Assembly (NCBI RefSeq): GCF_050920415.1
Contig: NZ_CP169309.1
DNA length: 64,000 nucleotides
Source of the DNA: Escherichia coli
Lineage (GTDB): Bacteria; Pseudomonadota; Gammaproteobacteria; Enterobacterales; Enterobacteriaceae
Reading direction: 5' to 3' (one strand)
In this document: positions 1,466 to 49,409 of the stretch, in pieces
Layout: each line of letters starts with the position of its first letter
Numbering within the stretch: the stretch's first letter is position 1
Notes under the pieces: generated by a model
The model's input: only the letters and a program-made list of their open reading frames with translations
Databases searched by the model: none
What the model was told of the DNA's origin: nothing
Made by a program: the position numbers and the translations under genes

Positions 1466-4400
1466 TTAACCGCTAATCTGCTCCATCGCCTGCAAAATAC
1501 GCTTATCCGAAATCGGATAAGGCGTACCAAGTTGTTGAGCGAAGTAGCTGACGCGCAGCTCTTCTATCATCCAGCGGATCTCTTTTACGTCTTCATCTTC
1601 ACGACGTGCTGGCGGCAGTTTGTTGATCCACTGCTGCCACGCCTGCTGGACATTTTCGACTTTCAGCATCTGGGCGCGGTCGCGATGTGGATCAACCGCC
1701 AGTTTTTCCAGACGTTTTTCAATCGCCTGTAAATAACGCAGCGTGTCGCCCAGCCGTTTAAAACCGTTGCCAGTGACAAAACCGCGATACACCAGCCCGC
1801 CCATCTGCGCTTTAATGTCAGAAAGCCCCAGCGCCATGGTCATATCCACCCGTCCTTTCAGGCGTTTGTTGATATTGAACACTGCCGTAAGGATTTGCTC
1901 GACCTGCTTCGCAATATCCACCACCGTGTCGTTCAGTTCAGCGCGGACTTTTTCATGAAGCGCGGCAAAGCCTTCTTCCGTCCAGACCGGGCCGCCCGCC
2001 TCATCAATCAACTTATCAACACCGCAGGAGATGCAGTCGTCAATGAGATCCAGCACTTTACCGTACGGGTTAAAGTAGAGACCCAGCTTCGCTTTGTTCG
2101 GCAGTTTCTCATGCAGATATTTAATTGGCGACGGAATGTTCAGCAACAGCAAGCGACGCAAACCACGCCACATAGCCTGCTGTTGTTCCTGCGGGTTATC
2201 AAAAAGCTTAATCGCTACGCTGTCACGCTCATCCACCAGCGCAGGCCAGGCCTTCACTTTGTAGTTGCCACGTTTCTGCTCGTAGTGATCCGGTAAATTA
2301 CCGAAGCTCCAGATATGTAACCCGCTTTGCTCAATACCATCATCGGCAACGGCGGAAAGCGTTTCCTGCACTTTGCCTTTCAGGGCGTCTTTCAGATCCT
2401 GTAATGAGCGCCCTTCTTTTAGCTTCTTATTTTTGTCGTCCACCACGCGGAAGGTGATTTTCAGGTGATCGGGCACCTGATCCCAGTGCCAGTCTTCGCG
2501 GTCAACGGTAACGCCGGTCATCCGCCGTAGCTCGCGCTCAAGGCTGTCGAGCAACGGCAGTTCCAACGGCGTGACGCGACCTAAAAACGCTTCGGCGTAG
2601 TTTGGCGCGGGTACAAAATTACGCCGTACCGGTTTCGGCAACGATTTGATTAGAGCAATCACCAGTTCACGGCGCAGGCCTGGGATCTGCCACTCAAACC
2701 CGCTTTCCTCAACCTGGTTAAGTAACGGCAGCGGAATATGCACGGTCACACCGTCAGCATCCGCCCCCGGCTCAAACTGATAGCTTAAACGCAGCTTGAG
2801 ATTGCCCTGATGCCAGAAGTTCGGGTAATCCAGCTTGCTGATTTTTTCCGCCCCTTCTTTGATCAACATGCTCTTTTCAAAGTTGAGCAAATCAGGTGTT
2901 TCGCGGCTGACTTTTTTCCACCAACTATCAAAGTGTCGTGAGGAGATCACATCGTGGCTGATGCGCTGGTCGTAAAATTCAAACAACGTTTCGTCATCCA
3001 CCAGAATATCGCGGCGACGTGATTTGTGTTCCAGTTCTTCCACTTCTGCCCGTAGTTTCAGGTTTTCACGGAAGAATGCGTGACGCGTCTGCCAGTCACC
3101 TTCCACCAGCGCGTGGCGAATAAAAAGTTCACGACACAGCGCAGGATCAATCTGGCTGTAGTTGACCTTACGCGCAGCAACAATCGGCAACCCGTAAACG
3201 GTGACTTTTTCAGTTGCCATCACCGCGCCCTGCGCCCGTTCCCAGTGCGGTTCGCTGTAGGAGCATTTAATCAAATGCTGGGCAACTGGCTCTACCCATT
3301 CCGGATCGATGCGTGCCGCAATGCGCCCCCACAGGCGGCTGGTTTCTACCAGTTCCGCCACCATTGCCCATTTCGGCGGCTTCTTGAATAAACCAGAACC
3401 GGGGAAGATGGAGAAACGCGCGTTACGTGCGCCGGTATATTCCTGTTTATCGGCATCTTTCATGCCGATATGCGAAAGCAAACCTGTCAGTAAGGCGATG
3501 TGAATTTCGCGATACTCCGCCGGTTCGCTGTTAACCGGAATGCCAAGTTCTTTCACCACCTGGCGCAACTGGGTGTAGATATCCTGCCATTCGCGCACGC
3601 GCAGATAGTTAAGGTAATCGGTACGGCACAGGCGACGGAAGGCGTTTGAAGAGAGCGCCTTTTGCTGCTCGCCGAGATAATTCCACAGATTTACAAACGC
3701 CAGGAAGTCGGATTCTTTATCGTGAAAGCGACGATGTTTTTCGTCCGATGCCTGCTGCTTGTCCATTGGCCGCTCACGCGGGTCCTGAATAGAGAGCGCG
3801 GAAGTGATAATCATCGCCTCACGCACGCAGCCATGTTTCTGCGCTTCCAGCACCATTCGCGCCAGACGAGGATCGACTGGCAGTTGCGAGAGCTGGCGAC
3901 CGAGCGGCGTCAGTTTATAGGCGCTGGCCTGTTCATCAGTGGTGATCGCGCCCAGCTCTTCGAGCAGACGCACGCCATCCTGGATATTGCGTTTATCCGG
4001 CGCTTCTACAAACGGGAACGCAGCGATATCGCCCAGCCCCAGCGCGGTCATCTGCAAAATAACCGAGGCCAGGTTGGTACGCAGAATCTCCGGATCGGTA
4101 AACTCCGGGCGCGAGAGGAAATCGTCTTCGGAATAAAGACGAATGCAGATCCCTTCTGACACACGACCACAGCGGCCTTTACGCTGATTAGCTGAAGCCT
4201 GCGAAATGGGCTCAATCGGCAGACGCTGCACTTTGGTGCGATAGCTGTAGCGGCTGATACGCGCCGTACCTGGGTCGATAACGTATTTAATCCCCGGCAC
4301 AGTCAGCGAGGTTTCCGCGACGTTAGTCGCCAGCACAATGCGCCGTCCGCTGTGCGACTGGAAGACGCGGTTCTGCTCGCTGTTCGAAAGCCGTGCATAA

Positions 4401-5368
4401 AGCGGAAGAATTTCCGTATGGCGTAAGTTCAGCTTGTTCAGCGCATCGGCGGTATCGCGAATTTCTCGCTCGCCGCTCATAAAAATCAGAATGTCGCCAG
4501 GGCTTTCCTGGCTCAGTTCATCTACGGCATCGAAAATCGCCTGCAACTGGTCGCGCTCGGTGTCATCAGCTTCTTCAACAATCGGGCGATAACGCACCTC
4601 CACCGGATAGGTACGACCGGAGACTTCGATAATCGGCGCATTATTAAAGTGGCGCGAAAAGCGTTCCGGGTCGATAGTCGCGGAAGTGATAATGATTTTT
4701 AGGTCAGGACGCCGCGGCAGTAACTCTTTCAAATAACCGAGGAGAAAATCGATATTCAGGCTACGTTCGTGCGCTTCGTCAATAATGATAGTGTCGTACT
4801 GCATCAGCAGGCGGTCTTGCTGGATCTCTGCCAGCAGGATACCGTCGGTCATCAGCTTGACCATCGTGTTATCACTGACGTGATCGCTGAAACGCACTTT
4901 ATACCCGATGCAACCGCCCGGCTCCGTTTGCAGCTCTTCCGCAATACGGTTCGCCACCGTTCGTGCCGCCAGACGACGCGGCTGGGTATGGCCGATCAGC
5001 CCTTTAATCCCGCGGCCCAGTTCCATACAGATTTTCGGTAACTGAGTCGTTTTACCGGAACCCGTTTCCCCGGCGACGATCACCACCTGGTGATCACGGA
5101 TTGCTTCGAGAATGTCCTGCTTTTTCTGACTAACCGGCAAATTGTCCGGATAAGTGATTTCCGGTCGTGCTGCTTCACGCAGCAGGACTTTCCCTGCCGC
5201 CTGGTCAATCTCTTTCGCCATCTCCTGGAAAATGGCCTGTTGTGCATCAGGATTTTTAACCTTCTTCACGCCGTGCAGACGGCGGGAAAAACGCAGTCTG
5301 TCACGCAGCATCAGCGAATCCAACCGTTGCTGCAAGGCCGTAAAGGTCAATTTTTGTTGTTCTGTCAT
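1466..5368 (-). CDS. hrpA: ATP-dependent RNA helicase HrpA (DEAH-box)
   Basis: 1300 aa ORF; Walker A GETGSGKTTQ, DEAH motif, HA2/OB C-terminal region; length matches E. coli HrpA. Confidence 0.95.
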   Translation of the reverse strand: MTEQQKLTFTALQQRLDSLMLRDRLRFSRRLHGVKKVKNPDAQQAIFQEMAKEIDQAAGKVLLREAARPEITYPDNLPVSQKKQDILEAIRDHQVVIVAGETGSGKTTQLPKICMELGRGIKGLIGHTQPRRLAARTVANRIAEELQTEPGGCIGYKVRFSDHVSDNTMVKLMTDGILLAEIQQDRLLMQYDTIIIDEAHERSLNIDFLLGYLKELLPRRPDLKIIITSATIDPERFSRHFNNAPIIEVSGRTYPVEVRYRPIVEEADDTERDQLQAIFDAVDELSQESPGDILIFMSGEREIRDTADALNKLNLRHTEILPLYARLSNSEQNRVFQSHSGRRIVLATNVAETSLTVPGIKYVIDPGTARISRYSYRTKVQRLPIEPISQASANQRKGRCGRVSEGICIRLYSEDDFLSRPEFTDPEILRTNLASVILQMTALGLGDIAAFPFVEAPDKRNIQDGVRLLEELGAITTDEQASAYKLTPLGRQLSQLPVDPRLARMVLEAQKHGCVREAMIITSALSIQDPRERPMDKQQASDEKHRRFHDKESDFLAFVNLWNYLGEQQKALSSNAFRRLCRTDYLNYLRVREWQDIYTQLRQVVKELGIPVNSEPAEYREIHIALLTGLLSHIGMKDADKQEYTGARNARFSIFPGSGLFKKPPKWAMVAELVETSRLWGRIAARIDPEWVEPVAQHLIKCSYSEPHWERAQGAVMATEKVTVYGLPIVAARKVNYSQIDPALCRELFIRHALVEGDWQTRHAFFRENLKLRAEVEELEHKSRRRDILVDDETLFEFYDQRISHDVISSRHFDSWWKKVSRETPDLLNFEKSMLIKEGAEKISKLDYPNFWHQGNLKLRLSYQFEPGADADGVTVHIPLPLLNQVEESGFEWQIPGLRRELVIALIKSLPKPVRRNFVPAPNYAEAFLGRVTPLELPLLDSLERELRRMTGVTVDREDWHWDQVPDHLKITFRVVDDKNKKLKEGRSLQDLKDALKGKVQETLSAVADDGIEQSGLHIWSFGNLPDHYEQKRGNYKVKAWPALVDERDSVAIKLFDNPQEQQQAMWRGLRRLLLLNIPSPIKYLHEKLPNKAKLGLYFNPYGKVLDLIDDCISCGVDKLIDEAGGPVWTEEGFAALHEKVRAELNDTVVDIAKQVEQILTAVFNINKRLKGRVDMTMALGLSDIKAQMGGLVYRGFVTGNGFKRLGDTLRYLQAIEKRLEKLAVDPHRDRAQMLKVENVQQAWQQWINKLPPARREDEDVKEIRWMIEELRVSYFAQQLGTPYPISDKRILQAMEQISG

Positions 5369-5559
5369 AACGTTAGTGGGCAGTTGGCTGCCTGATTAAT
5401 TTTCTTTTAAATGATAGATATAGAGTACCACATCGCGGCTTTCTATGCGTTGTTCAATAAATTCGAACATAGGCTTCGATTTATTGCGCTATCTCTGTGG
5501 CAGGATTGTGAATAAAGTGTCAACAAGCAACGGGGCATCGCCCATTCAAACATCTATAA

Positions 5560-13348: not shown

Positions 13349-14209
13349 TTATTCTCGCGAAATACCATCCAACGTAGACAACACGTCCGCAGAAAGATGC
13401 AATTTTTCTGCGGCCATATTCTCCCGTAAATGAGCAACAGAAGACGTTCCTGGGATCAGCAAAATATTCGGTGAACGCTGTAAAAGCCACGCCAGCGCCA
13501 CCTGCATTGGTGTCGCATTAAGGCTCGTAGCAACATCGGAAAGCGTGGAGGATTGCAGTGGCGTAAAGCCCCCCAGCGGGAAGAACGGCACGTAGGCAAT
13601 GCCATCATGAGCCAAAGCATCAATCATTGCGTCATCAGCACGATGAGCAATGTTGTATTCATTCTGCACACAGACGATTTCGGTAATCTTACGCGCCTCT
13701 GCAACCTGCGTCGGTGTTACATTGCTCAGGCCAATATGTTTTACCAGGCCTTGTTGTTGCATCTCTGCCAGCACGGTCAGGCTGGCTTCAATCGATCCTT
13801 CTGCTGGGCCATGACCATCCCCCATCATAACGCGCAGGTTAACCACATCCAGTACGTCCAGTCCGAGATTACGTAGATTATCGTGTACCGCTTTTTGCAA
13901 CTCTGCCGGAGAAAATGCGGGCAACCAGGAGGCGTCCTCTCCACGCCGCGCCCCAATTTTAGTAACAATGGTCAGGTCGTCAGAGTAAGGATAAAGCGCT
14001 TCGCGGATAATCTGATTGGTGACGTGCGGACCATAAAAGTCACTGGTATCAATGTGATTGACGCCCAATGCTAGCGCCTCGCGCAGAACGGTTATAGCGA
14101 CGTGGCGATCTCTGGGCGGGCCGAAAACCCCAGGACCTGCCAGTTGCATCGCGCCATAACCAAGACGGTTAACGGATTTTGTACCGAGAGTAAATGTGTT
14201 GCTGCTCAT
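13349..14209 (-). CDS. ydbC: aldo-keto reductase YdbC
   Basis: 286 aa ORF; AKR family motifs; length equals K-12 YdbC. Confidence 0.9.
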   Translation of the reverse strand: MSSNTFTLGTKSVNRLGYGAMQLAGPGVFGPPRDRHVAITVLREALALGVNHIDTSDFYGPHVTNQIIREALYPYSDDLTIVTKIGARRGEDASWLPAFSPAELQKAVHDNLRNLGLDVLDVVNLRVMMGDGHGPAEGSIEASLTVLAEMQQQGLVKHIGLSNVTPTQVAEARKITEIVCVQNEYNIAHRADDAMIDALAHDGIAYVPFFPLGGFTPLQSSTLSDVATSLNATPMQVALAWLLQRSPNILLIPGTSSVAHLRENMAAEKLHLSADVLSTLDGISRE

Positions 14210-14363
14210 CGCACCCTGCCCTGTAATAAAACGAATTCAGAAAAATCAGTATAGAAATGAAAAGAGATAAATAATGCGAAGGCGTAAACAAGATTACTGG
14301 ATGAGTTGCTCTATTGTCCTGAAAAACACCAAAACAAAACGCGTCAAGCGCCGCATCCGGCAA

Positions 14364-14416: not shown

Positions 14417-17400
14417 TTAGAACGTTTTCTTGAAGTTCAGCATCACGCCTTTATCGCTGATACCATCCTCTTTCCAGTGGTAAGCATCCAGATTCAGCGA
14501 ACTTTCTTTGCTGCTGTACTTCACGCCGACGCTTGCCAGACTGTTGATGCCGCCGCCCTTTTGCCCATCATCGACATTAAAGTGCTGGCTGCCTGCGCCT
14601 GCCAGGCTTGCCGTGCGCTGGCTCTTGCTGTAGCTGAGGTTCGGCCCACCTTCCAGCGTGGCGTTCACACTCCAGCCGTCTTTCCCTGCGTAGTCCAGCT
14701 TCAGCCCGACGATGCTGTCCACCGCCGTTTCGCTGCCGCTGTTCATGCTCAGGTTAAAGTCTCCGGCATTGCGCTCCTGATAGTCGCCTTCCAGCGTGTG
14801 ACGCAGTTTCACACCCGCATATGGCGTGATTTTCAGCCCTTCGCGCGGTTCAAAGGTTTTCGCCCCTTCGCTGCGGAACTCCAGGTACTGTTGTTTCACA
14901 TTCGTGTCTGCCGTCTTACTGATGTCGCCGTAAGCCACCGAACGGCTGCTGTCCAGTTGGTGGATATCGTAACGCAGCGCGTTATTCCAGCTCATACCGT
15001 TGTCAAAGGACATCTGATGCTTCAGGCCAAAGAACTGGCTGTAGCCGCCTGTAACACCATTATCACCCGCTTTCTGCGCACCGTCGCCGTCCAGACGGGC
15101 GATACCGTACTCCAGGCTCATGGTCTGGTTTTCGCTCAGGTCGAGGGTTTTACGCAGCGCCAGCATGTCGTACTCGGTATTGTTACCCAGCTCAGCACGC
15201 GGATCGCCTTTCGCCACCACGTTAAATGCCAGAGCGTTGCCCATCTTCGGTGCTGCGTCCGCCAACATGCTGAAGCGGTTACTCAACACGCGCGCCTCAC
15301 GGAATACCGTGGTAGCCTGGCTCCCGCTGACTTGTTTTAGCGCGTTGTTCAGCTCTGCAGTGGTGCCGACGTTCAGACTGGTATACAGCTCGTTGTTGGT
15401 GTAACCCGCATCCAGCGCTTTTGCCACGTCATTCACTGAGGCATCCGTCGCCACATCGGTGTAGGCGTTTTTGCTCATGGTCACGTCAACGTTGCCGCTG
15501 GCGTCGGTACTGCCTGTCGCCTGCCAGACAACAGATGTCGAAGTGATCGCTTGCGCATCGGTCAGGTTGCTGCCTTGCACCACATCATCAAAGCTGACGG
15601 TTTTGTCCGCCGTTCCCGCCGCAAAAGCGGTGTTGATCTCCACGCCTTTCATACTGGCGTTATTGACCATCAGCTTACCGGCGCTACCGTCGGCGTTCGT
15701 CCCCACCACGTAACCATTGAGGTTGTTCATGCCATCGTTACGGCTAACGGAAGAAGAATGGCTGCCGTCGTATGGCGTAATGGTGGGTTCTTCCGGCGCG
15801 GTAAAGTCGACATAGTGTACTTCCGTACCGTCTCCCCCTTCGCCACTGCCCTCTATCGGCGTGCCAGATTGTTTAATCAATCCGGAACCATTCACGTTGT
15901 CGTCAATATAAACAGTGCCGTTGTTAACAATATGACCATTGCTCCCGAGCTTGCTGAAGGCGAAGGAGTTATTGGCGTAGATATTAATCGTACCGTTGTT
16001 TTCAACCACACCATCCGCTTTGGCGTCCGATGCTAATTGCATCCCAATCATGCCTGTTTGTGTCGTGCCTTCGCTGCCGACATTGATGGTGCCATTGTTA
16101 ACCATTTTTGCGCTGCCGTGCGCATTCATGGCGATGGTATTATTTTTATCAATATTGATAGTGCCATCGTTAATTGCCCGGCTACCGGCGTTATTATTTG
16201 ACGTCGTAACCTGGCCGTTAATCACACCTGTCGTACCGTTATACAATGTATGCCCATTACCGCCGGTAGCGATATCAGCATCCCCATTCACTGTACCCCA
16301 GTTGTTGAAATGCCCAGCCCAAAGTCCGTTATCAAGAAGATCGACAACACCACCGTCCAGGTTATTGAAGGTCGCGTTTTTATCAACCGAACCACTATGA
16401 ACCGTTCCTGCGTTATTGAATGTGGCTGCGGCAGAAAAATTCACTTTATTGACCGTTCCACCCGCTTCGTTATTCATCACGGCAGAAGCAGAGGCTCCCT
16501 TCCATGCTGTTACCGTCCCGGCGTTATAAAACGTACTGGCCCATTGTTCAACAGTGTTGATAGTGCCGGAGTTGTTGATAACAGAACCCGCAACGGTTGT
16601 ACCTACTTGCCCGGTCACTACACCTTCGTTAGTAAACACGCCGCCATCCACAGAAACGGTTTTTGTCGTGCCCTGGTTGGTGTATTCCCCACCCGTTGCA
16701 ATATCAACCTCGTTTATACTGCCCGTGGTTTCATTGACCAGATGACCAAAGTCAGCCACGGTGACAGCCCCTCCGGTTACGGTACCCGCGTTGGTTACCA
16801 GGGTTTCAGCGGTCGCTATCATATCAGTAGAACCACCGGATGAAGACAGGTTAAGCGTCTCCCCCTCGGCCGTAATGATATCGCCGTTTCTCCAGCTTAA
16901 TGAAACGAACCCATCAGTCGGGTTATAGGCGTTACTGTCCTGGCATATACCAAAAGTACAGATGGTTCCGTAATTAACGATAGTCCCGCTGCCATCGTTA
17001 TAGAATGCCTGCCCGTTTTCAGCATTGATATTGATGATGCCCGTCTGGTCATTAACTGCGGTACCGCCACTATAAACTGCCATACCAACGAGTTTATTCG
17101 CCCCCAGGCTGCCATCAAAGTTCTCATTCTTCTCGAGGTTGATGGTACCCTGATTAACCACCGTATTATCGGTACCGTATGCTGCCATCCCAGCACCTGC
17201 ATTATAGATAGTGATAGTACCTGACTGCTGGTTAAGCGCGGTAGCATTTTGCCTTGCGCCACCATAACTGTCCGTTCCTACCGCCATGCCGACACCATAA
17301 TTTTTTGCATTGCTGCTGCCGATATCGTTGCGTAAGGTGGTGGTATCGTTTTCATCTACCCAGATCGTATCCAGGGTAATCTGGCCTGCATTTGTTACAG

Positions 17401-19954
17401 TCGAATGATTAATCGCCAGCATACCGACATTACCCCGGCCATACATATCAATAACGCCATTCGCACCATTTAGCGCTGAACCATTATCCTGAGCAGTCAT
17501 GCCCGTCATACTAACAACGCCACTATTAAAAACCGTGGGATCGCTCAATGACAAAGCATTGAACATATTCAAAACGCTATACTGTTCCATCACTTTAGCC
17601 GTAATGGTACCGTTATTCACCGCCGTCCCACCTTCGGAGCTAAAGAAGGCTTTATTACCGGATTCCGGCGATACATCAATTGCGGATGAGTAATCATATT
17701 GCTCAAGTAAAACATTACCGTTATTCGTTGCAACGGAACCCGTACCCGATATATTGGTAAACCCCATATTCCAGAGCTCAACAAACCCGTTATTGATAAC
17801 TTGTGACCCTGAACTGACGCTAAGTATTTCTGATGGGTTATTGCCATAATGCGCGTAAACGTCAATATCCTTCATACTGAAGGTCGCATCCTCCGTGATT
17901 TCAAGAAAAGCATTATTGCTTACCTGAATAATATTTGCATAGCCCAGCGGAAATTGACCGCTGACTGAGGAGTCTCCTCCCAGATAAACCGACGAATGAC
18001 CATCAACCTTAATGAGCGGAATATCACCATAGCCCGTACGACTTGCGGCTGGGACTGAACCATCCGTCATAGCCGATGCTTCACCGAAAAGTTGAATACC
18101 ACCCCGTAAGGTAACGCTATTTTCATCCCCTGAAATCACCAACCCACTGATGTTTTCCTGGCTACCATTGACAGTACTATAGGTGTGATGCGCAAGTTCG
18201 CTATCAACCTTCAATGTTAACTGACCATCCAGCGTCAGGTCATTATTGTTACCCGAAACACGAATACCTACGGAAGAATCGAAAAAGTGTTCTGCTGCAT
18301 TATCAGTCGTCTGATCTTTATCCACCATAATATTACCGGTAATTTCAACTTCATTGCCATCACCGGCCACATTTACCCCTGTAGCAACACTGCCAGTCAC
18401 ATTAAGCTCATTCGTTGCCAGCGTCATGGTGTTATTATTTCCAGACACATCCAGACCGGTTGAATAATCCCCAACATCCATACGGCCAGCCAGAGAAATT
18501 TCGCCCCCATCTCCAACAACGCGAATCCCGGTACTGGCATTTCTGGCAGTGATATCCCCTACATTGATAAAGGTAGAATAATTACCCTCAATCAGAATCC
18601 CTGTCGCATTGGTCTCTGAACTGCCATTACTGACGGATATATCCCCCCTGTTAATGAACGTCGACGCATCACCACTGAGAGAAACACCCAGCGATTTTTC
18701 ATCCACCACCGTTATATTGCCTTTGTTGCTGACGACTGCGCCATTGCCCTCAACATCAATACCCCGTGCAGCATTGCTAACGTATAAATCCCCTTCCTGT
18801 TTAACCGTCGCATTATTACCAACGATTTTGCTACCCGATGAATTTTGCCCATCAACCGTCATATGGCCTTTATTATCGGTCCTGACATCATTACCGATAA
18901 TAAGGGCCCCTGTTCCACCATTATTGACGGTGGAGTCGCCAGTGTTATTTAAGATTGTACGATCGCCATTAACGATAACCGCCGTCCCAGCATCGACCAC
19001 CGTCTGACCGTTATTATTAATGGTTATATTATCGCCGGTCAGGATACCGACCACCGAATCTTCACCGACAGCCTCTGTTTTACCCTCGTTTGTCAGCGTA
19101 ATGTTGTCACCATTAATCATCATCACTGTACCGCCATTCAGGGCCGTGTTGCCGCCCTGGTCAGTGATAATTGCATCATTAACGGTAATTATTCTGCCCG
19201 TTGTTCCATCAGACACGACGCTGGCTAACTGTGTGACGTGGAGTTTACCTTCGTCATCATAGCGCCATTCCGTATCACCAGTGGTACTCACTCCACTAAA
19301 GATGGCGGTATGAGTCTCTTCATGGTTTTCCCACTCAGTCACAATGGTTTTTCGGCCATCTTTTGCCGTCAGCGTGTAGCTACCATCTTCATTTTGGGTA
19401 TAAGTGAACGTCGCCCCGCGAATCTTCAAGGTTTGCGCGTCCTTGTCCCATGTCACATTGTTATCAAAGACAACGGGTTCTGTTCTCGGGGGGTCAACAT
19501 CATCATCGCTATTGTCGGGTGGAGTAACATCACCGCCTTTATCTGGGGGGGTAACATCATCGGCGTTATCTGGCTTTACAGGTATATCTGAATCTTCATC
19601 ACTGGGAAGGGGTGGCGGTAGAGGGCCATTATCATCTGGCGGTATGGGCTGGGAAAAAGAAGAGTGAGCAGAATGATCATTGTCATGAGACAATTCAATC
19701 ACTGCGAGTGTTGTCAGTACCGCCGTGGCACCTAATGCCAGTAACGAGCTGAAACCATTATTTGTAACAACAGCACATTTTTCTGGCACTGTTTTCAACT
19801 TCGTTGACGGTCGGGCGTGCCCTTCTGACTGACATGTCATTTGAGAGCTTCTGCGCATACTGTCTGCACTCTCGCCTTCTGTTATTTCCGCCCCCCAGCT
19901 TTGGCCACTTAACGCTATAGCGATACACGCTGATAATAACGTTTTCTTTTGCAT
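14417..19954 (-). CDS. ydbA: autotransporter adhesin YdbA, apparently intact (1845 aa)
   Basis: Signal peptide (MQKKTLLSACIAIALSGQSWG), long repetitive G/T/N-rich passenger, C-terminal beta-barrel translocator ending in ...FKKTF; uninterrupted ORF, whereas K-12 ydbA is split by IS2/IS30. Confidence 0.85.
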   Translation of the reverse strand: MQKKTLLSACIAIALSGQSWGAEITEGESADSMRRSSQMTCQSEGHARPSTKLKTVPEKCAVVTNNGFSSLLALGATAVLTTLAVIELSHDNDHSAHSSFSQPIPPDDNGPLPPPLPSDEDSDIPVKPDNADDVTPPDKGGDVTPPDNSDDDVDPPRTEPVVFDNNVTWDKDAQTLKIRGATFTYTQNEDGSYTLTAKDGRKTIVTEWENHEETHTAIFSGVSTTGDTEWRYDDEGKLHVTQLASVVSDGTTGRIITVNDAIITDQGGNTALNGGTVMMINGDNITLTNEGKTEAVGEDSVVGILTGDNITINNNGQTVVDAGTAVIVNGDRTILNNTGDSTVNNGGTGALIIGNDVRTDNKGHMTVDGQNSSGSKIVGNNATVKQEGDLYVSNAARGIDVEGNGAVVSNKGNITVVDEKSLGVSLSGDASTFINRGDISVSNGSSETNATGILIEGNYSTFINVGDITARNASTGIRVVGDGGEISLAGRMDVGDYSTGLDVSGNNNTMTLATNELNVTGSVATGVNVAGDGNEVEITGNIMVDKDQTTDNAAEHFFDSSVGIRVSGNNNDLTLDGQLTLKVDSELAHHTYSTVNGSQENISGLVISGDENSVTLRGGIQLFGEASAMTDGSVPAASRTGYGDIPLIKVDGHSSVYLGGDSSVSGQFPLGYANIIQVSNNAFLEITEDATFSMKDIDVYAHYGNNPSEILSVSSGSQVINNGFVELWNMGFTNISGTGSVATNNGNVLLEQYDYSSAIDVSPESGNKAFFSSEGGTAVNNGTITAKVMEQYSVLNMFNALSLSDPTVFNSGVVSMTGMTAQDNGSALNGANGVIDMYGRGNVGMLAINHSTVTNAGQITLDTIWVDENDTTTLRNDIGSSNAKNYGVGMAVGTDSYGGARQNATALNQQSGTITIYNAGAGMAAYGTDNTVVNQGTINLEKNENFDGSLGANKLVGMAVYSGGTAVNDQTGIININAENGQAFYNDGSGTIVNYGTICTFGICQDSNAYNPTDGFVSLSWRNGDIITAEGETLNLSSSGGSTDMIATAETLVTNAGTVTGGAVTVADFGHLVNETTGSINEVDIATGGEYTNQGTTKTVSVDGGVFTNEGVVTGQVGTTVAGSVINNSGTINTVEQWASTFYNAGTVTAWKGASASAVMNNEAGGTVNKVNFSAAATFNNAGTVHSGSVDKNATFNNLDGGVVDLLDNGLWAGHFNNWGTVNGDADIATGGNGHTLYNGTTGVINGQVTTSNNNAGSRAINDGTINIDKNNTIAMNAHGSAKMVNNGTINVGSEGTTQTGMIGMQLASDAKADGVVENNGTINIYANNSFAFSKLGSNGHIVNNGTVYIDDNVNGSGLIKQSGTPIEGSGEGGDGTEVHYVDFTAPEEPTITPYDGSHSSSVSRNDGMNNLNGYVVGTNADGSAGKLMVNNASMKGVEINTAFAAGTADKTVSFDDVVQGSNLTDAQAITSTSVVWQATGSTDASGNVDVTMSKNAYTDVATDASVNDVAKALDAGYTNNELYTSLNVGTTAELNNALKQVSGSQATTVFREARVLSNRFSMLADAAPKMGNALAFNVVAKGDPRAELGNNTEYDMLALRKTLDLSENQTMSLEYGIARLDGDGAQKAGDNGVTGGYSQFFGLKHQMSFDNGMSWNNALRYDIHQLDSSRSVAYGDISKTADTNVKQQYLEFRSEGAKTFEPREGLKITPYAGVKLRHTLEGDYQERNAGDFNLSMNSGSETAVDSIVGLKLDYAGKDGWSVNATLEGGPNLSYSKSQRTASLAGAGSQHFNVDDGQKGGGINSLASVGVKYSSKESSLNLDAYHWKEDGISDKGVMLNFKKTF

Positions 19955-20600
19955 GAGAAATCCTTTTCAATGAATGACATTTCAAATAATAAAATATGAG
20001 TAACAGATAAGAAATAGCCACAGGCTGTGTCATGATTTAATGTCTGCTCTTGAAATTTTATTTAGCAATCCCAGAATATTCAACTTAATTAGTATTTCGA
20101 AACCTCAATGTAGACACATAAAAAACAAATTATTCGATTACTTAGGCTATTTGTTGCATTAATACACATCCTCTAACAATAATCAGACAAAAAGCAATGT
20201 CAGCGTCAAATTGGGTAGCTGATTCATATTACTGATCACTCCGTAAATTCATTCATCGTGAAAATATTAACATTTCAACCATGTTCCATTTAATCAACCC
20301 ACTGAAAATCTGGAGGTTATCTACTGCGGTTTGTTGTTGACTGCCCCTGACAGGTTTACCTGGCGTTGACAGAAGATGAGGCTTGCAAAATGCTAAAAAC
20401 AATGTGGTGTTACAAGCAATCCCATAAACCTCGTAACTTCACTTAAATGAGCGATGCCGTCCATATTTGGGTTGACTATAAAAACCCTTAATATTGAGGT
20501 TGATGATGATATTCATGATGGCGTTGGAAAAATAGGACACCCATAAAATATCTATACAGCCTTTAAATTAAATCATTGAAATATCGCTGTTGCATAGTGC

Positions 20601-20927
20601 TTATTTTTGCAACCATTTCCCGTTAATTCCCTGCACATATTCCCCCCGTTTGGCCCGAGCTACAAGCCTTTGTCCGGCAAGCTTCGCGATATCATCTACC
20701 GATACATTATTTTGCTTTGCCAGTTGTTGATAACTCACTTTACGTGCGTCATTAATCTCGGTTACTAATTTCTCTGTTTCAGCATCCGTTTTCAACGCAA
20801 CCAAATAACCGTTAAATGTTTCACCTACCCGCCCCTGGATTCTGGCCTCGTCCAGTGTTAATGCCACTACATTGCTGCTTACCAGTCCAACAAGAAACGC
20901 ACAAAGAAGTAATGTTTTCTTCATCAT
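20601..20927 (-). CDS. ydbL: periplasmic protein YdbL (DUF1318)
   Basis: 108 aa from MMKKTLLLCAF signal peptide; track ORF extends further upstream but overlaps ynbE. Confidence 0.85.
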   Translation of the reverse strand: MMKKTLLLCAFLVGLVSSNVVALTLDEARIQGRVGETFNGYLVALKTDAETEKLVTEINDARKVSYQQLAKQNNVSVDDIAKLAGQRLVARAKRGEYVQGINGKWLQK

Positions 20928-20931
20928 CGCC

Positions 20932-21117
20932 TCAGAAAAGATCGCTACGGGTTTTGAGTAAATCTTCGACATCTTTGTCTGCCTTAATGATGATCTCATG
21001 CTCAATTTTAACGTTCATATTGATAGTGATCGGTTCCTTAGGTGCAGCGACTTCAATGCGAGGCGTACAGCCAACCAGCATAAAAGATGACGTCAACGCA
21101 GCCAGTAAAATTTTCAT
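20932..21117 (-). CDS. ynbE: lipoprotein YnbE
   Basis: 61 aa ORF with lipobox (MLVGC); between ydbH and ydbL as in E. coli. Confidence 0.85.
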   Translation of the reverse strand: MKILLAALTSSFMLVGCTPRIEVAAPKEPITINMNVKIEHEIIIKADKDVEDLLKTRSDLF

Positions 21118-23753
21118 TGTTTTTCCTCACACCTTTTTCCTTGCGGACAGCCATTTTCCGGCAGACGCGCGTTCTGCTCCAACCATGCCTGGAGATTATC
21201 GCCAAAGCGTAAACTGCGCCACAGCGTAAAAATATTCTCTTCATGATGGTAATTAAGATTTACCGTACCACTTTTACCGTCGACGCGACTGGTACCTGTA
21301 ATATTGGCCTGCATGGTTAACACACCGAGATTATCTAAATTAATTTTTGTCGATGAACGGCTAATTTCCATATAGCGCAACCAGTTAATCGCAGAACCCG
21401 CGGTCATATTGTCTTTCACCACCGCATCTGCGGTGTCTTTATCCAGCCGCAAGGTCATTGGTCCGCTATTTGCCAGCCAGCCGTCTTTAACTATCCATTT
21501 TTCATTGTTCAGCCATAAAGGCAATGCCCCACTAAATGCCCCGGACATGGCGAATTGTTTCGGATTGACGGCGCTAACCAGTTCGCTGGATGAGAGATTA
21601 TTCAGCCGCAACAGCGCCGGGTCATGTTGCGGCATGCGTAATTGTTTCATCAGCACGTTACCGCCTAACACATCGACGCTAACATCGGTCAACAACAATG
21701 GTTCGTCTTCACTCCACGGATAACGCCCTTGCAAGTCAGCCGTAATATTTTTCGCTGTCACCAGATTAATCACTTCGGCAATTCGCAACGTAACGGGGCC
21801 GCGAGTCCCCAGATGCCAGGCTCCATCGGAAAAGCGAAATGGCAAAACAAAATCGACACCGTTAACCTGATTATCTGGCATCCAGGCACTACCGCCTTTC
21901 AACACACCGTGCCCTCCCGCGCGGAATCCTTGTTCAGGCGCAGCAGAAAATGCGACCTGGGCATATAGTTCGCCATCGCGTAAGTTCATCTTCCAGTCGG
22001 GTGGCACCAGCGGCTGGAATACGGTCAGTGATTGTTTAGGCCACCAGGCGTTACCGCGCAGACGAATACCGTCCCAGCGACCATTTACCCGAACCGGGCC
22101 AATCTCACCAGCATGTAAATCGCCTTTAAAGAGGAAATACGTCGGATCGCGTCCATCGACACTAAATTTTAAGGTTGATGGCGGTAACACACTGCCACCA
22201 GTGAACAGTGTTTGCCCGGCGTCCAGTGACAGCGCGCCGCTGAACGAAGGATTCTGCACATCACGTACCCAGACAACGGGCTTGTCGAGAATCAATCGCG
22301 GCTTTTCTACCGTCATTGTCCCGTATTGCAATTTGTCAAAGCCGGTGGAGAGATCGGTCAGCGTAATCGTGCTGTCACGCCACTCACCTTTTCCTGCGAC
22401 ATCCCAACTGGCGTGCATTGGGGTAAAACTGCCCTTGCCCCAGTAGCGCCACTGCCAGCGGCCAGCGTCAGGGAGAAAATCATTCGCCAGTCCATCCATA
22501 TGCAGCACGAAATCGCCCAGTTCATTTTCATGCGCCTGCAAAATGGCCTGCAAACGTCCGTCAACACCACGTTGGGTGACTTTTACACCCGCTAAAGGCC
22601 AGCGGATTTCATCGATGTCCAGCGAATCGATGACTCTTCCCTTCGAACGTAATAACGCGCCTGGCTCAAAGGCCAGCATTGGGTCAGTCAGACTTCCGCT
22701 TAGCTGCGCAGGTAAACGGGCATATAAAATGAGGTCCGCCTGTTTCGCTTCACCGGTCAGTTGCAAAGGCAGCTGGCTGTTATCCATACTTAATTTTCCT
22801 GGGCCAAAATTAAGCACCGCGTTGCCCTTACCCGCTTGCCCCTGGGTCAGCACACTCAGTCGTCCGCTGACCAGAGCATTCTCAAGCCCTGCCTGCCAGT
22901 TGTCGACTTTGACACCCAGTCGTCCACTCAAAGGAAAACCTGCATACGGCCAGCTCCAGCGACCATCGCTTACGGTCAATTGTTGGCGAGTAATTTGCCA
23001 CGGCAGATCGAGCAACGGATCGCCGTTATCCCGTGCCAGCACAATCAATTGCCCGCTATTTTCCTGCCAGTCCAGCTCGGCATCCACCAGTGAAGGCTCC
23101 TGCGGCAAGTTTAACGTCGCAGTAGCATGACCACTTACAGGAAGTCCATCCGGCACTAGCGGCATAGTAAATTCCCCCACCAGTTTAACTGGCGGCTGAT
23201 TTTCAAACGCGACGACATCCAGTTCGCTGACTGTAAGTTGTTGCCCTTTCAGCTGGCCTTGAAATTTAACTTTTTCGCCCTGATAACGCAGTTGCTGGAT
23301 ATCGGAGTTTAATGCGAGAGAGAGTTTTCCCTGCCATTCCTGCCAGGGAGAAAAAATCAGTTTATCGATATTGATCCAGGTGTTAGGCAACATGGCCTGC
23401 CACTGCGCGAGGGTTTTTGGAGCGGCTGGCGATTGCTCCGTCTGCGGCAATTTCGCCAGACAAGCAGAATCAAGTTCTACCGTGCCGACGTTCAATAACC
23501 AGCGGCTGGGATGAGAAAGGCTGGCGTTTGTGATATGTGCAAGCTGACAATCGCCCACCAGATAACGGAGATCGGGAATGATTAAACCTTTACGCGTAAT
23601 GCGTGGGCTTTCATCTAAAGCAATACGTGTCCCGAGCGGTAGCCAGATGCCCGCCAGCGTGGGAACCCACAAGCCGAGCGTCATCAGCAGCGTCAACGGC
23701 ACAAGAATAATCAGTAATAACAGCGCGAGAACGGCTTTATATTTACCCAGCAT
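21114..23753 (-). CDS. ydbH: AsmA-family membrane protein YdbH
   Basis: 879 aa ORF with N-terminal transmembrane anchor; length equals K-12 YdbH; stop overlaps ynbE start. Confidence 0.9.
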   Translation of the reverse strand: MLGKYKAVLALLLLIILVPLTLLMTLGLWVPTLAGIWLPLGTRIALDESPRITRKGLIIPDLRYLVGDCQLAHITNASLSHPSRWLLNVGTVELDSACLAKLPQTEQSPAAPKTLAQWQAMLPNTWINIDKLIFSPWQEWQGKLSLALNSDIQQLRYQGEKVKFQGQLKGQQLTVSELDVVAFENQPPVKLVGEFTMPLVPDGLPVSGHATATLNLPQEPSLVDAELDWQENSGQLIVLARDNGDPLLDLPWQITRQQLTVSDGRWSWPYAGFPLSGRLGVKVDNWQAGLENALVSGRLSVLTQGQAGKGNAVLNFGPGKLSMDNSQLPLQLTGEAKQADLILYARLPAQLSGSLTDPMLAFEPGALLRSKGRVIDSLDIDEIRWPLAGVKVTQRGVDGRLQAILQAHENELGDFVLHMDGLANDFLPDAGRWQWRYWGKGSFTPMHASWDVAGKGEWRDSTITLTDLSTGFDKLQYGTMTVEKPRLILDKPVVWVRDVQNPSFSGALSLDAGQTLFTGGSVLPPSTLKFSVDGRDPTYFLFKGDLHAGEIGPVRVNGRWDGIRLRGNAWWPKQSLTVFQPLVPPDWKMNLRDGELYAQVAFSAAPEQGFRAGGHGVLKGGSAWMPDNQVNGVDFVLPFRFSDGAWHLGTRGPVTLRIAEVINLVTAKNITADLQGRYPWSEDEPLLLTDVSVDVLGGNVLMKQLRMPQHDPALLRLNNLSSSELVSAVNPKQFAMSGAFSGALPLWLNNEKWIVKDGWLANSGPMTLRLDKDTADAVVKDNMTAGSAINWLRYMEISRSSTKINLDNLGVLTMQANITGTSRVDGKSGTVNLNYHHEENIFTLWRSLRFGDNLQAWLEQNARLPENGCPQGKRCEEKQ

Positions 23754-31102: not shown

Positions 31103-31618
<516 letters not shown>

Positions 31619-31625
31619 CACTAAC

Positions 31626-31793: not shown

Positions 31794-32729
31794 ATGTCGC
31801 AAAATCAAGAAATTAGTAAGAAAGAACAATACAACCTGAACAAATTACAAAAACGTCTGCGTCGTAACGTGGGCGAAGCCATTGCTGACTTCAATATGAT
31901 TGAAGAAGGCGATCGCATCATGGTTTGCCTCTCCGGGGGTAAAGACAGCTATACCATGCTGGAGATTCTGCGCAATTTGCAGCAAAGCGCGCCAATCAAT
32001 TTTTCGCTGGTGGCTGTTAACCTCGATCAAAAGCAACCGGGCTTCCCGGAACACGTTCTGCCCGAGTATCTTGAAAAGCTGGGCATTGAGTACAAGATTG
32101 TGGAAGAGAACACTTACGGTATCGTGAAAGAGAAGATTCCGGAGGGCAAAACCACTTGCTCACTGTGTTCTCGTCTTCGTCGCGGAATTCTTTACCGTAC
32201 CGCAACGGAACTGGGAGCGACGAAGATCGCGCTGGGTCACCATCGTGACGATATCCTGCAAACGTTGTTCTTAAATATGTTCTACGGCGGCAAGATGAAA
32301 GGTATGCCTCCGAAACTGATGAGCGATGATGGCAAACATATTGTGATTCGTCCGCTGGCCTACTGCCGCGAGAAAGATATTCAGCGATTTGCCGATGCAA
32401 AAGCGTTCCCGATTATTCCGTGCAACCTGTGCGGTTCACAGCCTAACCTGCAACGTCAGGTGATTGCTGACATGTTGCGTGACTGGGATAAACGTTATCC
32501 GGGGCGTATCGAGACGATGTTCAGCGCGATGCAGAATGTGGTGCCGTCGCATCTGTGCGATACCAACCTGTTCGATTTCAAAGGCATTACCCACGGTTCT
32601 GAAGTGGTTAACGGGGGTGATCTGGCGTTTGATCGCGAAGAGATCCCTCTACAACCGGCGGGTTGGCAGCCTGAAGAAGATGAAAATCAGTTGGATGAGT
32701 TACGACTGAATGTGGTTGAAGTGAAATAA
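31794..32729 (+). CDS. ttcA: tRNA 2-thiocytidine(32) synthetase TtcA
   Basis: 311 aa ORF; PP-loop SGGKDS and CxxC motifs; full length. Confidence 0.92.
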
Positions 32730-32739
32730 CCCGGATAGC

Positions 32740-41969: not shown

Positions 41970-43496
41970 ATGAGTATGTCATCCATACCGTCGTCCTCCC
42001 AATCCGGGAAGCTCTATGGCTGGGTCGAAAGAATTGGTAACAAGGTTCCCCATCCTTTTTTGCTCTTTATCTATTTGATTATCGTACTCATGGTGACGAC
42101 GGCAATTTTGTCGGCCTTTGGCGTCAGTGCGAAAAACCCGACCGATGGTACGCCAGTGGTCGTGAAAAACCTGCTCAGTGTGGAAGGATTACACTGGTTT
42201 TTACCCAATGTGATTAAAAACTTTAGCGGTTTTGCCCCACTAGGCGCGATCCTGGCGCTGGTTTTAGGTGCCGGTCTGGCGGAGCGCGTCGGCTTACTGC
42301 CAGCGTTGATGGTTAAAATGGCATCGCATGTGAATGCTCGCTACGCCAGTTATATGGTGCTGTTTATTGCTTTTTTCAGCCACATTTCTTCCGATGCGGC
42401 GTTAGTGATCATGCCACCGATGGGGGCGCTGATTTTTCTGGCGGTGGGCAGGCATCCAGTTGCAGGTTTACTGGCCGCCATTGCAGGCGTCGGTTGCGGC
42501 TTTACAGCTAATTTACTGATTGTCACAACCGACGTGTTGCTGTCGGGGATCAGCACGGAGGCTGCGGCTGCGTTCAATCCGCAAATGCACGTCAGTGTAA
42601 TTGATAACTGGTATTTTATGGCCAGCTCCGTAGTCGTACTGACGGTTGTTGGCGGCCTGATAACCGACAAAATCATTGAGCCACGGTTAGGTCAATGGCA
42701 GGGAAACAGCGATGAGAAACTGCAGACATTGACCGAAAGTCAGCGTTTTGGTTTACGCATAGCAGGTGTCGTATCGCTACTTTTTATTGCTGCGATTGCG
42801 CTGATGGTGATCCCGGTAAACGGTATATTGCGCGATCCGATCAACCACACCGTGATGCCATCCCCCTTTATTAAAGGTATCGTGCCACTGATCATTCTCT
42901 TTTTCTTTGTGGTTTCGCTGGCTTATGGCATCGCTACCCGCACAATTCGACGTCAGGCGGATTTACCGCATTTAATGATTGAACCGATGAAAGAGATGGC
43001 GGGATTTATCGTGATGGTTTTTCCCCTCGCCCAGTTTGTCGCCATGTTTAACTGGAGCAACATGGGGAAATTCATCGCTGTGGGGTTGACCGATATACTC
43101 GAAAGTTCAGGGCTTAGCGGCATCCCGGCGTTTGTCGGTCTGGCGTTGCTTTCCTCTTTCTTATGCATGTTTATCGCCAGCGGTTCCGCAATCTGGTCGA
43201 TTCTGGCCCCCATTTTCGTACCGATGTTTATGCTACTTGGCTTTCACCCGGCATTTGCGCAAATCCTCTTTCGTATTGCCGACTCATCCGTATTGCCTTT
43301 AGCGCCGGTATCTCCTTTTGTTCCACTGTTTCTTGGATTCCTGCAACGCTACAAACCAGACGCGAAACTGGGTACTTACTATTCGTTAGTTTTGCCCTAT
43401 CCACTTATCTTTTTGGTGGTATGGCTGCTGATGTTGCTGGCGTGGTATCTTGTCGGTCTGCCGATAGGTCCGGGGATTTACCCTCGTTTGTCTTAA
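41970..43496 (+). CDS. abgT: p-aminobenzoyl-glutamate transporter AbgT
   Basis: 508 aa polytopic membrane ORF downstream of abgB. Confidence 0.9.
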
Positions 43497-46378: not shown

Positions 46379-46621
46379 GATGTAATCCTTGTGCAGACAA
46401 ATTTCTTGTTACCTAAACGTAACAATACCATGACATTTCACCGTTGTCTGCTCTGAAAACCTCACCTCTTAGCTGGATTTACAATCAACGCATTGATTAG
46501 TTAGCTAATGTTGCTACTTCCTTCCCTGACTATTGATGATCTGAATGAATTGTCGCGGTAAAATAGCCCCGCCAGGGGTTTCCGGCATGACGACAATTAT
46601 CTGGAGGAGCCTGATAAAACA

Positions 46622-47666: not shown

Positions 47667-47690
47667 GGCGTTACCCACAAGGGTAACGCC
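47667..47690. terminator. hairpin between convergent ynaI and mppA (putative terminator)
   Basis: GGCGTTACCC-acaa-GGGTAACGCC perfect inverted repeat; weak T-run. Confidence 0.4.
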
Positions 47691-47698
47691 AGTTCACA

Positions 47699-49309
47699 TC
47701 AATGTTTCACAATATACATAGTCCGGCTATACGCCACATCTTCCGGGTTATTAATGGGATAACCTTTCAGCCACGGCTTGATTAATCGTCCATTGGTATA
47801 TTGATAAATTGGTGCAATCGGTGCTTGCTCCATGAGGATTTTTTCTGCCGCATTGTAATCGGCATTACGCGCTTTAACGGTATTTTCCGTCGATGCCTGG
47901 GCCAAAACTTTGTCGTAGGCCGGGTTGTTAAAGCGTGAAATGTTGCCTGAATGCGTTGACGTTAATAATGTCAGGAAGGTGGAGGGTTCATTATAATCCC
48001 CCACCCACGAGGCGCGGATAACATCAAAATTACCTGTATTACGACTATCGATATAGGTTTTCCATTCCTGATTTTGCAGTTTGACATCTACACCAAGGTT
48101 CTTTTTCCACATCGATGCCACAGCAATCGCAATTTTTTGATGGTTTTCTGAAGTATTATACAAAAGCGTCAGCTTCAGCGGTTTTTGCGGACCATAACCG
48201 GCTGCGCTCAACAAAGTTTTTGCCTGCGCATTCAGTTCTTCCTGACTCATTTGTTCAAACGGCGAAGGCTCCGGCGTGAATCCGGCAGTAACATCTGGCG
48301 TAAAATGCCACGCTGGTTTTTCGCCCGTCCCCAACACTTTTTCGGTCATCAGGCGGCGATCTATCGTCATACTTAATGCCAGACGAACGCGCTGATCTGC
48401 CGTCGGCCCTTTTTGCGTGTTAAACGCATAATAATAGGTTCCGAGCTGCGGCGGTGTATAAACCTGCCCCGGAATATCCTTCAACAGCTTCTGATACATA
48501 TTTTTGGGGAAGGATTCGGTGATATCAATATCCCCCGCGAGATAACGCTTAGTGGCTGCGGATTCCTGATTAATTGGCAGGAAGGTCACTTTTTGCAACA
48601 CCGTTTTGGCGTTATCCCAATAATGGGTATTTGGCACCACGACCAGTTTTTCATTGACTACACGCTCTTTAAGAACATAAGCGCCATTGCCGACCAGATT
48701 TCCGGGTTTCGTCCACTCTTTCCCGCTTTCTACGTTAGCTTTTTGCACCGGGAAGAAGGCAAAATTGGCTGTTAAATTCACAAACCACGGCAACGGTTTA
48801 TCAAGCTGGATTTTCAAAGTACGGGCATCAACCGCGGTGACGCCTAGCTGATCAGGCGTAGCTTTACCATCAATAATCGCCTGTGCGTTGTTGATTCCCG
48901 CCAGCGCGGCAAACCAGGCAAACGGCGACAACGTTTTTGGGTCAACCAGACGTTGCCAGCTGTAGACAAAATCCTGTGCCGTTACCGGTGTGCCATCCGC
49001 CCATTTTGCGTTATCGCGCAGGGTGAAAGTCCAGATACGGTTGTCATTACTTTTCCACTGAGTCGCAACGCCGGGGACAATCTCCCCTTTCTCGTTCTGA
49101 TTCACCAGTCCTTCAAAAAGATCGCGAATGACCTGAATCTCTGGCAGACCCACGGCTTTAGCGGGATCCAGCGACGCAGGCTCATCTTTAATATGGCGCA
49201 CCAGCTCCTGCTTCTCTGCCAGTACTGTGCCGCTCGGAACTTCTGCAGCATACGAAAGAGACATTATGCAAAGTGGCAAAAACGATATATAAATCATGAT
49301 TTTATTCAT
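47699..49309 (-). CDS. mppA: periplasmic murein tripeptide-binding protein MppA, with an AT-rich, apparently replaced 5' end
   Basis: OppA-family SBP sequence; start taken at MNKIMIYISFLPLCIMSLSYA/AEV signal peptide (ATG at 49309); the first ~20 codons and upstream DNA are AT-rich, unlike the rest of the gene. Confidence 0.85.
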   Translation of the reverse strand: MNKIMIYISFLPLCIMSLSYAAEVPSGTVLAEKQELVRHIKDEPASLDPAKAVGLPEIQVIRDLFEGLVNQNEKGEIVPGVATQWKSNDNRIWTFTLRDNAKWADGTPVTAQDFVYSWQRLVDPKTLSPFAWFAALAGINNAQAIIDGKATPDQLGVTAVDARTLKIQLDKPLPWFVNLTANFAFFPVQKANVESGKEWTKPGNLVGNGAYVLKERVVNEKLVVVPNTHYWDNAKTVLQKVTFLPINQESAATKRYLAGDIDITESFPKNMYQKLLKDIPGQVYTPPQLGTYYYAFNTQKGPTADQRVRLALSMTIDRRLMTEKVLGTGEKPAWHFTPDVTAGFTPEPSPFEQMSQEELNAQAKTLLSAAGYGPQKPLKLTLLYNTSENHQKIAIAVASMWKKNLGVDVKLQNQEWKTYIDSRNTGNFDVIRASWVGDYNEPSTFLTLLTSTHSGNISRFNNPAYDKVLAQASTENTVKARNADYNAAEKILMEQAPIAPIYQYTNGRLIKPWLKGYPINNPEDVAYSRTMYIVKH

Positions 49310-49352
49310 ATATTTTTTAACCTTAAAATAATATGGTACACACAATGGTACA

Positions 49353-49380
49353 CAAAAAGAAACGAGGCGTTAGCCTCGTT
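49353..49380 (-). terminator. intrinsic terminator downstream of the prophage tail-fibre gene
   Basis: AACGAGGC-gtta-GCCTCGTT hairpin followed on the minus strand by TCTTTTTGTG. Confidence 0.6.
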
Positions 49381-49409
49381 TCGCGGCGATGTTCTTCGCA
49401 CATCACCTC

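Follow-up and report, generated by a model that had tools for sequence, protein, structure and literature searches.

The stretch of DNA examined here, 64,000 nucleotides of Escherichia coli sequence (the window), matches strain MFDS1022581 (NZ_CP169399.1) of that species at 100% identity, and our subject is the interval in it between ydbL and pdxI, which holds the autotransporter gene ydbA. We conclude, with a probability of about 85%, that this interval is the cryptic clade I version of a known variable region, in which a private spacer is followed by an intact ydbA and no fea/tynA/paa island is present on the chromosome. On this reading, the DNA between the ydbH-ynbE-ydbL genes and pdxI would hold only a 646-bp AT-rich region and the intact ydbA. 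Goldstone et al. 2016 had already reported that a 'region of genomic heterogeneity', made up of the paa genes and ydbA, is flanked by ydbH/ynbE/ydbL and by ynbC/ynbD (PMC4951805). The finding holds up but is an ordinary one, a lineage-typical state of a published variable region that RefSeq has already annotated, and the arrangement is common and not peculiar to this strain.

The ydbL-pdxI interval in the window, in K-12 and in other taxa

A preliminary description of the window had reported ydbA as one unbroken reading frame of 1845 codons. This held, as the list of open reading frames (ORFs) contains a single ATG-initiated frame encoding 1845 amino acids (aa), its translation, inspected for a missed stop, contains 0 internal stops, and RefSeq/PGAP calls the same coding sequence intact (WP_001355392.1, 'autotransporter domain-containing protein'). 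In random sequence, the chance of 1845 stop-free codons is (61/64)^1845, or ~3e-39. The ~650 bp of AT-rich non-coding DNA said to separate ydbL from ydbA measure 646 bp at 34% GC, and neither the annotation of the window nor its alignment to K-12 places a fea, tynA or paa gene or an insertion sequence (IS) between the two genes, again as first described. By position, ydbA is the orthologue of the genes of that name in K-12, in E. coli B-1109 and in E. albertii, with which the ydbL to pdxI interval is collinear.

In K-12 MG1655 the same interval is occupied differently. There, the elements IS2D and IS30C interrupt ydbA, and feaR-feaB-tynA-paaZ-paaA..Y lie between ydbL and ydbA, which bears out the earlier statement that K-12 ydbA is disrupted by IS2 and IS30 beside the paa cluster. 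The size given for that cluster, roughly 15 kb, was too small: the two genes lie 19,185 bp apart, measured between the stop of ydbL and the start of ydbA, and feaR to paaY span 18.7 kb. In blastn, window positions 26000-20603 matched K-12 at 96% identity as far as the ydbL stop, and positions 16104-9001 matched the 3' third of ydbA, pdxI, ydbD and ynbAB at 93%. Similarity to K-12 thus stops at 20603 and near ydbA codon 1280, and between these points (16104-20602) blastn returned just two short patches at 70%. This block stands where K-12 has a 26-kb interval comprising feaR..paaY and, IS elements included, the 5' two-thirds of ydbA. Neither the ydbL-feaR nor the paaY-ydbA spacer of K-12 has any detectable resemblance to the 646-bp spacer.

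When the three K-12 ydbA fragments were re-joined, they yielded an intact protein of 2020 aa. The window's YdbA is 56% identical to it overall, but this average conceals a sharp gradient, from 30-55% over the first ~1400 residues to 90-96% over the last ~400; identity is high only beyond aa 1450. The passenger is ~50% identical and the C-terminal translocator (350 aa) 93%. To judge from these alignments, the window's YdbA is a distinct allele class and not a repaired K-12 YdbA, and the locus is a different haplotype bounded by the ydbL stop codon and approximately ydbA codon 1280. Since nucleotide similarity is essentially lacking across 16104-20602, the spacer is unrelated and the passenger is divergent, the locus is not a K-12-like one that lost its island, and the preliminary framing of the locus as K-12 minus ~15 kb has to be abandoned.

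Other taxa carry further states of the interval. The paa-less E. coli B-1109 has ydbL, a spacer of ~400 bp and an intact ydbA of 1981 aa, and in E. albertii ydbL adjoins an intact ydbA of 1917 aa, likewise without the paa island. A contig scan that returned six loci gave the context in Pseudocitrobacter faecalis as paaE..paaY-ydbA-pdxI and yielded none upstream of ydbA for other Escherichia species. Because both island states are seen across taxa, both are taken to be old. Three long-standing states can be told apart: the island with a K-12-type ydbA, no island with one of several ydbA classes, and the island without ydbA. A Pseudocitrobacter-like donor for the K-12-type block of paa genes and ydbA was also considered and found no support, the passengers being just 46% identical.

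Among Escherichia alleles, passengers are 46-63% identical and barrels 85-98%. A variable passenger on a conserved barrel is the usual pattern of an exposed, diversifying surface protein. In the common E. coli and E. albertii alleles the Pro-rich linker is made of 10-aa repeats of PVPPDDGGDT or TPPDDGGNV (locus L003, 17584-18363; L013, 8001-8780; L014, 8001-8780), and such repeats probably explain why common E. coli YdbA lengths lie ~10 aa apart (1901, 1911 ... 1961).

Architecture of the encoded protein

Sequence and model together identify the window's YdbA as a classical (type Va) autotransporter and place it in the BigA/YdbA family, with a signal peptide, BigA_N and BigA_beta domains, a helix and a barrel (Table 1). 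The signal peptide, as read from the sequence, consists of MQKK, a 13-residue hydrophobic core and SWG, with cleavage predicted before A, and M1, K4, L7, S8, A12, A14, L15, S16, W20 and A22 are invariant across six alleles. The Pfam Autotransporter domain (PF03797) was found on aa 1618-1816 (E 4.3e-19, 69.7 bits against a cut-off of 26 bits), only when the C-terminal 350 aa were scanned alone; the full-length Pfam scan missed it. The NCBIfam model auto_BigA (NF033178) matched with E 4e-296 and 985.5 bits, which is far under its 3400-bit cut-off. Since the score falls below that value, the protein is, by this measure, a relative of Salmonella BigA and not BigA itself.

The C-terminal 350 aa, compared with 1.84 billion cluster representatives, matched only 131 clusters, so that proteins with this kind of barrel make up a rather small family. 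We modelled the C-terminus with AlphaFold2 (AF2) from a 52-sequence alignment, and the model (mean predicted local distance difference test score, pLDDT, 93.8) contains helices followed by a barrel, whose 12 strands were read from the DSSP string. An earlier run on the C-terminal 445 aa with a 9-sequence alignment (pLDDT 46.5) was discarded and not used for the fold search. In the retained model a helix at residues 54-71 (aa ~1549-1566) stands directly ahead of the first barrel strand. The best fold matches in the PDB are all autotransporter translocators, namely EstA (E 5e-10), AaaA, NalP (template-modelling, TM, score 0.65-0.71), EspP, Hbp and BrkA, and from the matches to EstA, NalP and EspP we infer that the modelled helix would sit inside the pore. 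Celik et al. 2012 group the BigA barrel with NalP, in agreement with these matches (PMC3419190). A sequence search of the PDB gave two weak phage-spike matches, which were judged spurious. A beta-helical passenger is supported only indirectly: the 99%-identical cluster representative P0001 has precomputed BigA_3rd and BigA_4th domains, and the passenger of the window's YdbA is repetitive and rich in Gly, Asn and Thr. By analogy with characterised autotransporters, YdbA would be exported by Sec, its barrel would be inserted by the barrel assembly machinery (BAM), and its passenger would be threaded out from C- to N-terminus and displayed on the surface, where it would most likely serve adhesion or aggregation.

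One part of the protein departs from this simple picture. A survey of hydropathy and cysteines in L002, L003, L013, L014, L016 and the family representatives P0121-P0181 revealed a conserved N-terminal module. C41 and C60 are invariant, and the same Cys pair, 18-21 residues apart, is present in most Met-start full-length family representatives. A second hydrophobic, Gly/Ala-rich segment follows at aa 68-88, with a Kyte-Doolittle mean of ~1.8 (1.5-2.2 across the family), and is succeeded by a patch of Asp, His and Asn residues and by a Pro-rich spacer whose length varies. The module is kept, in most of the full-length representatives examined, while the rest of the passenger falls to ~50% identity. 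A transmembrane-like helix after a cleavable signal peptide is hard to square with simple type Va export. A speculative idea, to which we attach a low probability, is that the module forms the tip of a stalk, where it inserts into membranes or self-associates, or else acts as a periplasmic or inner-membrane tether, with the clade I allele as a short-stalk variant; such a tether, if true, would be at odds with the textbook type Va topology. No description of the module was found in the searchable literature, and it is the sole mildly unusual item of the locus.

Lineage, maintenance and alternative readings

Of 5,426 complete genomes, 17 carry the whole 7.2-kb arrangement, and a sensitive blastn search with the 646-bp spacer recovered exactly the same 17, at 98.6-100% identity. 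Over 35 kb, the flanks of four of these carriers match the window at 98-99.5% identity, compared with 94-97% for K-12 and B-1109. We also used hrpA (window 1467-5369), a core gene 9-13 kb away, as a lineage marker. Nineteen genomes matched it at >95% identity (97.2-100% for the 18 listed), the next-best listed genome stood at 94.0%, and 5,394 genomes fell in the 90-95% band. Okuno et al. 2023 include two of the carriers, EC42405 and 2013C-4282, among the complete genomes of cryptic clade I (PMC10100065), and both belong to those with flanks at 98-99.5%. Given these two published clade I carriers and the gap in hrpA identity between 97.2% and 94.0%, we infer that the window strain belongs to cryptic clade I, and the haplotype would then be the usual one of that clade.

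The island was sought with a combined megablast probe made of 3 kb of the private ydbA and 500-bp K-12 probes of feaB, tynA, paaA and paaK. MFDS1022581 and the other 16 carriers ranked top, each with one matching place, the ydbA part, and at megablast sensitivity feaB, tynA, paaA and paaK were not found on any of the 17 carrier chromosomes. The paa cluster therefore does not lie elsewhere beside the window or on the MFDS1022581 chromosome, the situation that could have overturned the preliminary description. In the collection as a whole, paaA-E are present in 3,154 of the 5,426 genomes (58%), always at no less than 90% identity and in all but one at no less than 95%; ~42% of complete E. coli genomes are without them, and they are plasmid-borne at just three places. 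Published values are ~76-82% for the paa genes and, for full-length ydbA in phylogroup A, ~42% (Goldstone et al. 2016, PMC4951805). Judged by gene content, the strain would be unable to catabolise 2-phenylethylamine or phenylacetate via TynA/FeaB/Paa, and the same absence predicts that neither compound would be used through this route in clade I, on whose phenylacetate use the literature searches returned nothing.

Comparison of the carriers indicates that ydbA is under selection. The gene is intact in 5 of 5 carriers translated, and relative to the window allele the ratio of nonsynonymous to synonymous divergence (dN/dS) is 0.15-0.23 overall and 0.04-0.13 in the barrel. These ratios identify purifying selection, from which it can be argued that the gene is maintained. 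By analogy, YdbA would most likely be an adhesin or aggregation factor whose exposed part is diversifying; the functional adhesin of the preliminary description is not supported as more than an inference.

Several observations weigh against the preferred reading or narrow it. The clade I placement was made by local sequence and not by genome-wide typing. Nor has the haplotype reached fixation in the lineage: N96 has a clade-I-type hrpA and YnbA, YnbB and YnbC identical to those of the window strain, but in its locus (L022, 31883-43903) paaA..paaY adjoin pdxI and ydbA is missing altogether, a state which means that the interval is exchangeable wholesale. The strain has two plasmids, of 242 kb and 57 kb (NZ_CP169400.1 and NZ_CP169401.1), and the paa search among them covered 50 kb at the start of the larger one. 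Within the spacer, promoter-like motifs occur at chance frequency (12 found and 11.3 expected from shuffled sequence), and AT-rich upstream regions are usually silenced by H-NS. Finally, no demonstrated function for any YdbA or BigA was found in the searchable literature, and BigA was still termed an adhesin candidate in 2026 (PMC13228587).

The last of these points bear on the alternative that survives best, in which the intact ydbA is not transcribed in ordinary conditions, H-NS being one possible silencer, and the strain does not in fact display YdbA. We regard this as quite conceivable, at somewhat below even odds; it would fit the structural conclusion but contradict the suggestion that a functional adhesin is expressed. 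The spacer is presumably the site of the ydbA promoter or regulatory region. It contains no ORF of note (its small ORFs look random), an Rfam scan of it gave no match, and Tandem Repeats Finder detected no DNA repeats in it or in ydbA; its low GC content and the lack of a promoter signal above chance both favour silence. Among the autotransporter genes of E. coli, many stay cryptic when the cells are cultured. A Salmonella preprint notes that the majority of adhesins are not expressed in the laboratory (PMC13228587). On the other side, purifying selection, the integrity of the gene in the carriers examined and the conservation of the spacer imply use in some condition.

It is considerably less probable that the spacer and the 5' part of ydbA were imported by recombination from another Escherichia or enterobacterial lineage, either into the clade I ancestor or later, and did not arise by divergence on the spot. 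The sharp breaks in similarity at the ydbL stop and near codon 1280 are what such an event would leave, and N96 shows that the interval can be swapped whole. The gene is also a mosaic within the lineage. Two sub-alleles, of 1845 aa and 1830 aa (window compared with L016/L017), differ over aa 551-1320 at a synonymous divergence (dS) of ~1.9, and outside this segment gene and spacer agree at 93-99% (spacer at least 98.6%), a pattern which indicates intragenic recombination. However, no donor was found for the imported segment: the nearest passengers, those of the B-1109 type and E. albertii, are 61-63% identical, and the nearest protein clusters outside the allele group 66-69%. Divergence from other E. 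coli is unusually high in the flanks as well, in keeping with a long separate history.

Least probable, and largely refuted, is a recent deletion from a K-12-like ancestor, in which the ~19-kb island was lost, IS2 and IS30 were never gained and ydbA is simply the unbroken K-12 gene: gene order is collinear with K-12 on both sides and real partial deletions with IS1 or with feaR or paaY remnants exist in other strains (H26-H30), but the window has no feaR or paaY remnant, its spacer resembles neither K-12 spacer, the 5' 3.8 kb of its ydbA are ~70% identical or unalignable at the nucleotide level, its passenger is ~50% identical in protein, and the outgroup E. albertii already has ydbL beside ydbA.

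For the clade I reading, which we retain, the consequences are modest. K-12 is a poor reference for the interval, a fact that matters little beyond annotation hygiene. The private spacer and passenger allele could serve to mark cryptic clade I, a reported emerging source of Shiga toxin-producing and enterotoxigenic E. coli (STEC/ETEC). An intact and apparently selected ydbA allele is a reasonable start for adhesion studies, for which many E. coli strains offer the same.

Features of the window and related systems

Coordinates of the features discussed are collected in Table 1.

Table 1. Features of the ydbA locus and of the YdbA protein, in window coordinates.
Feature	Position	Strand	Basis
pdxI (ydbC), aldo-keto reductase, conserved right-hand neighbour downstream of ydbA	13349..14209	-	Pfam PF00248, PGAP
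Terminator-like hairpin, 59 nt past the ydbA stop	14337..14358	-	consensus scan only
ydbA, BigA/YdbA-family type Va autotransporter (assigned), cryptic-clade-I allele	14417..19954	-	ORF, PGAP, NCBIfam auto_BigA
Translocator, aa 1496-1845: helical junction, putative pore helix, barrel read as 12-stranded	14420..15469	-	Pfam PF03797, AF2, fold matches
BigA_beta sandwich domain, aa 1414-1497	15464..15715	-	Pfam PF25783, E 5e-25, 87.5 bits, above gathering cut-off
Gly/Asn/Thr-rich repetitive passenger, aa 242-1413, hypervariable	15716..19231	-	46-63% identity to other YdbA alleles
BigA_N beta-barrel domain, aa 161-241	19232..19474	-	Pfam PF25784, E 4e-26, 91.4 bits against 24.5-bit cut-off
N-terminal module: Cys41/Cys60, hydrophobic aa 68-88 (nt 19691-19753), acidic/His patch, Pro-rich linker	19475..19891	-	alignment, hydropathy/Cys survey
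Signal peptide, aa 1-21, MQKKTLLSACIAIALSGQSWG followed by AE	19892..19954	-	read from sequence: n-, h-, c-regions; conserved in six alleles
Spacer ydbL-ydbA, 646 bp, 34% GC, private to haplotype	19955..20600		blastn distribution
Haplotype block without real nucleotide similarity to K-12	16104..20602		blastn against K-12
ydbL (DUF1318), last gene of ydbH-ynbE-ydbL, left edge of variable interval	20601..20927	-	Pfam PF07027, PGAP
ynbE	20932..21117	-	Pfam Lipoprotein_19
ydbH	21114..23753	-	YdbH annotation

Several further observations were made around the locus. Divergence of the flanks from K-12 peaks near the ydbA interval (~6%) and drops to ~0.2-3% about 15 kb away. The 23-kb Rac prophage of K-12 is missing at window ~31801-31843, between uspF (31185-31619) and ttcA (31795-32730), where the alignment jumps exactly over it, and the K-12 element IS5F is missing at ~46501-46504. 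At ~49264-49481, mppA is directly followed by mpaA; the K-12 gene pgrR, and probably ycjY too, both located past mppA in that strain, find no counterpart in the window. RefSeq flags frameshifts in abgT (41970-43483) and mppA (47686-49298), for which pseudogenisation and assembly error are both possible. Between ydcF and hrpA the window has a gene with a DUF2262 domain (397-1254) that has no counterpart in K-12. The same slot holds an SMI1/KNR4 gene and a small hypothetical ORF in carrier Z0117EC0005 and is empty in EC42405 and 2013C-4282; it is a small variable slot, possibly with toxin/immunity-type cargo. On the 242-kb plasmid (NZ_CP169400.1, positions 1-50000), a complete-looking type VI secretion system is present among many IS remnants.

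Four groups of known systems can be set beside the window's ydbA. The first is the K-12 gene (b4492, a pseudogene), which has the same position by pdxI, the same domain order, a signal peptide and N-terminal module conserved with the window's and, as noted above, a C-terminus that is 93% identical over 350 aa. It differs in its re-joined length (2020 aa compared with 1845 aa), in its IS elements, of which the window has none, and in its upstream neighbour, which is paaY in K-12 and ydbL in the window, the upstream DNA being unrelated. Closer in organisation are the B-1109 type and E. albertii, which share the order ydbH-ynbE-ydbL, spacer, intact ydbA and pdxI without a paa island, and whose passengers are the closest outside the allele group. 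Their spacers of ~400 bp have no similarity to the 646-bp one, and they have a long Pro-rich linker built of 10-aa repeats (PVPPDDGGDT-like), whereas that of the window allele is short and degenerate. Salmonella BigA (NF033178, with BigA_N, BigA_3rd, BigA_4th and BigA_beta) belongs to the same family and has the same architecture, but it comes from a different genus, and its function is likewise a candidate assignment (PMC13228587). Finally, the translocators of EstA (3kvn), AaaA (9oqa), NalP (1uyn/1uyo), EspP, Hbp and BrkA share the predicted fold of a pore helix and a barrel, with target-normalised TM scores of up to 0.71 and a Foldseek probability of 1.00 at just 12-17% sequence identity, whereas the passengers that EstA, NalP and the others carry (esterase, protease, others) are unrelated to that of YdbA.

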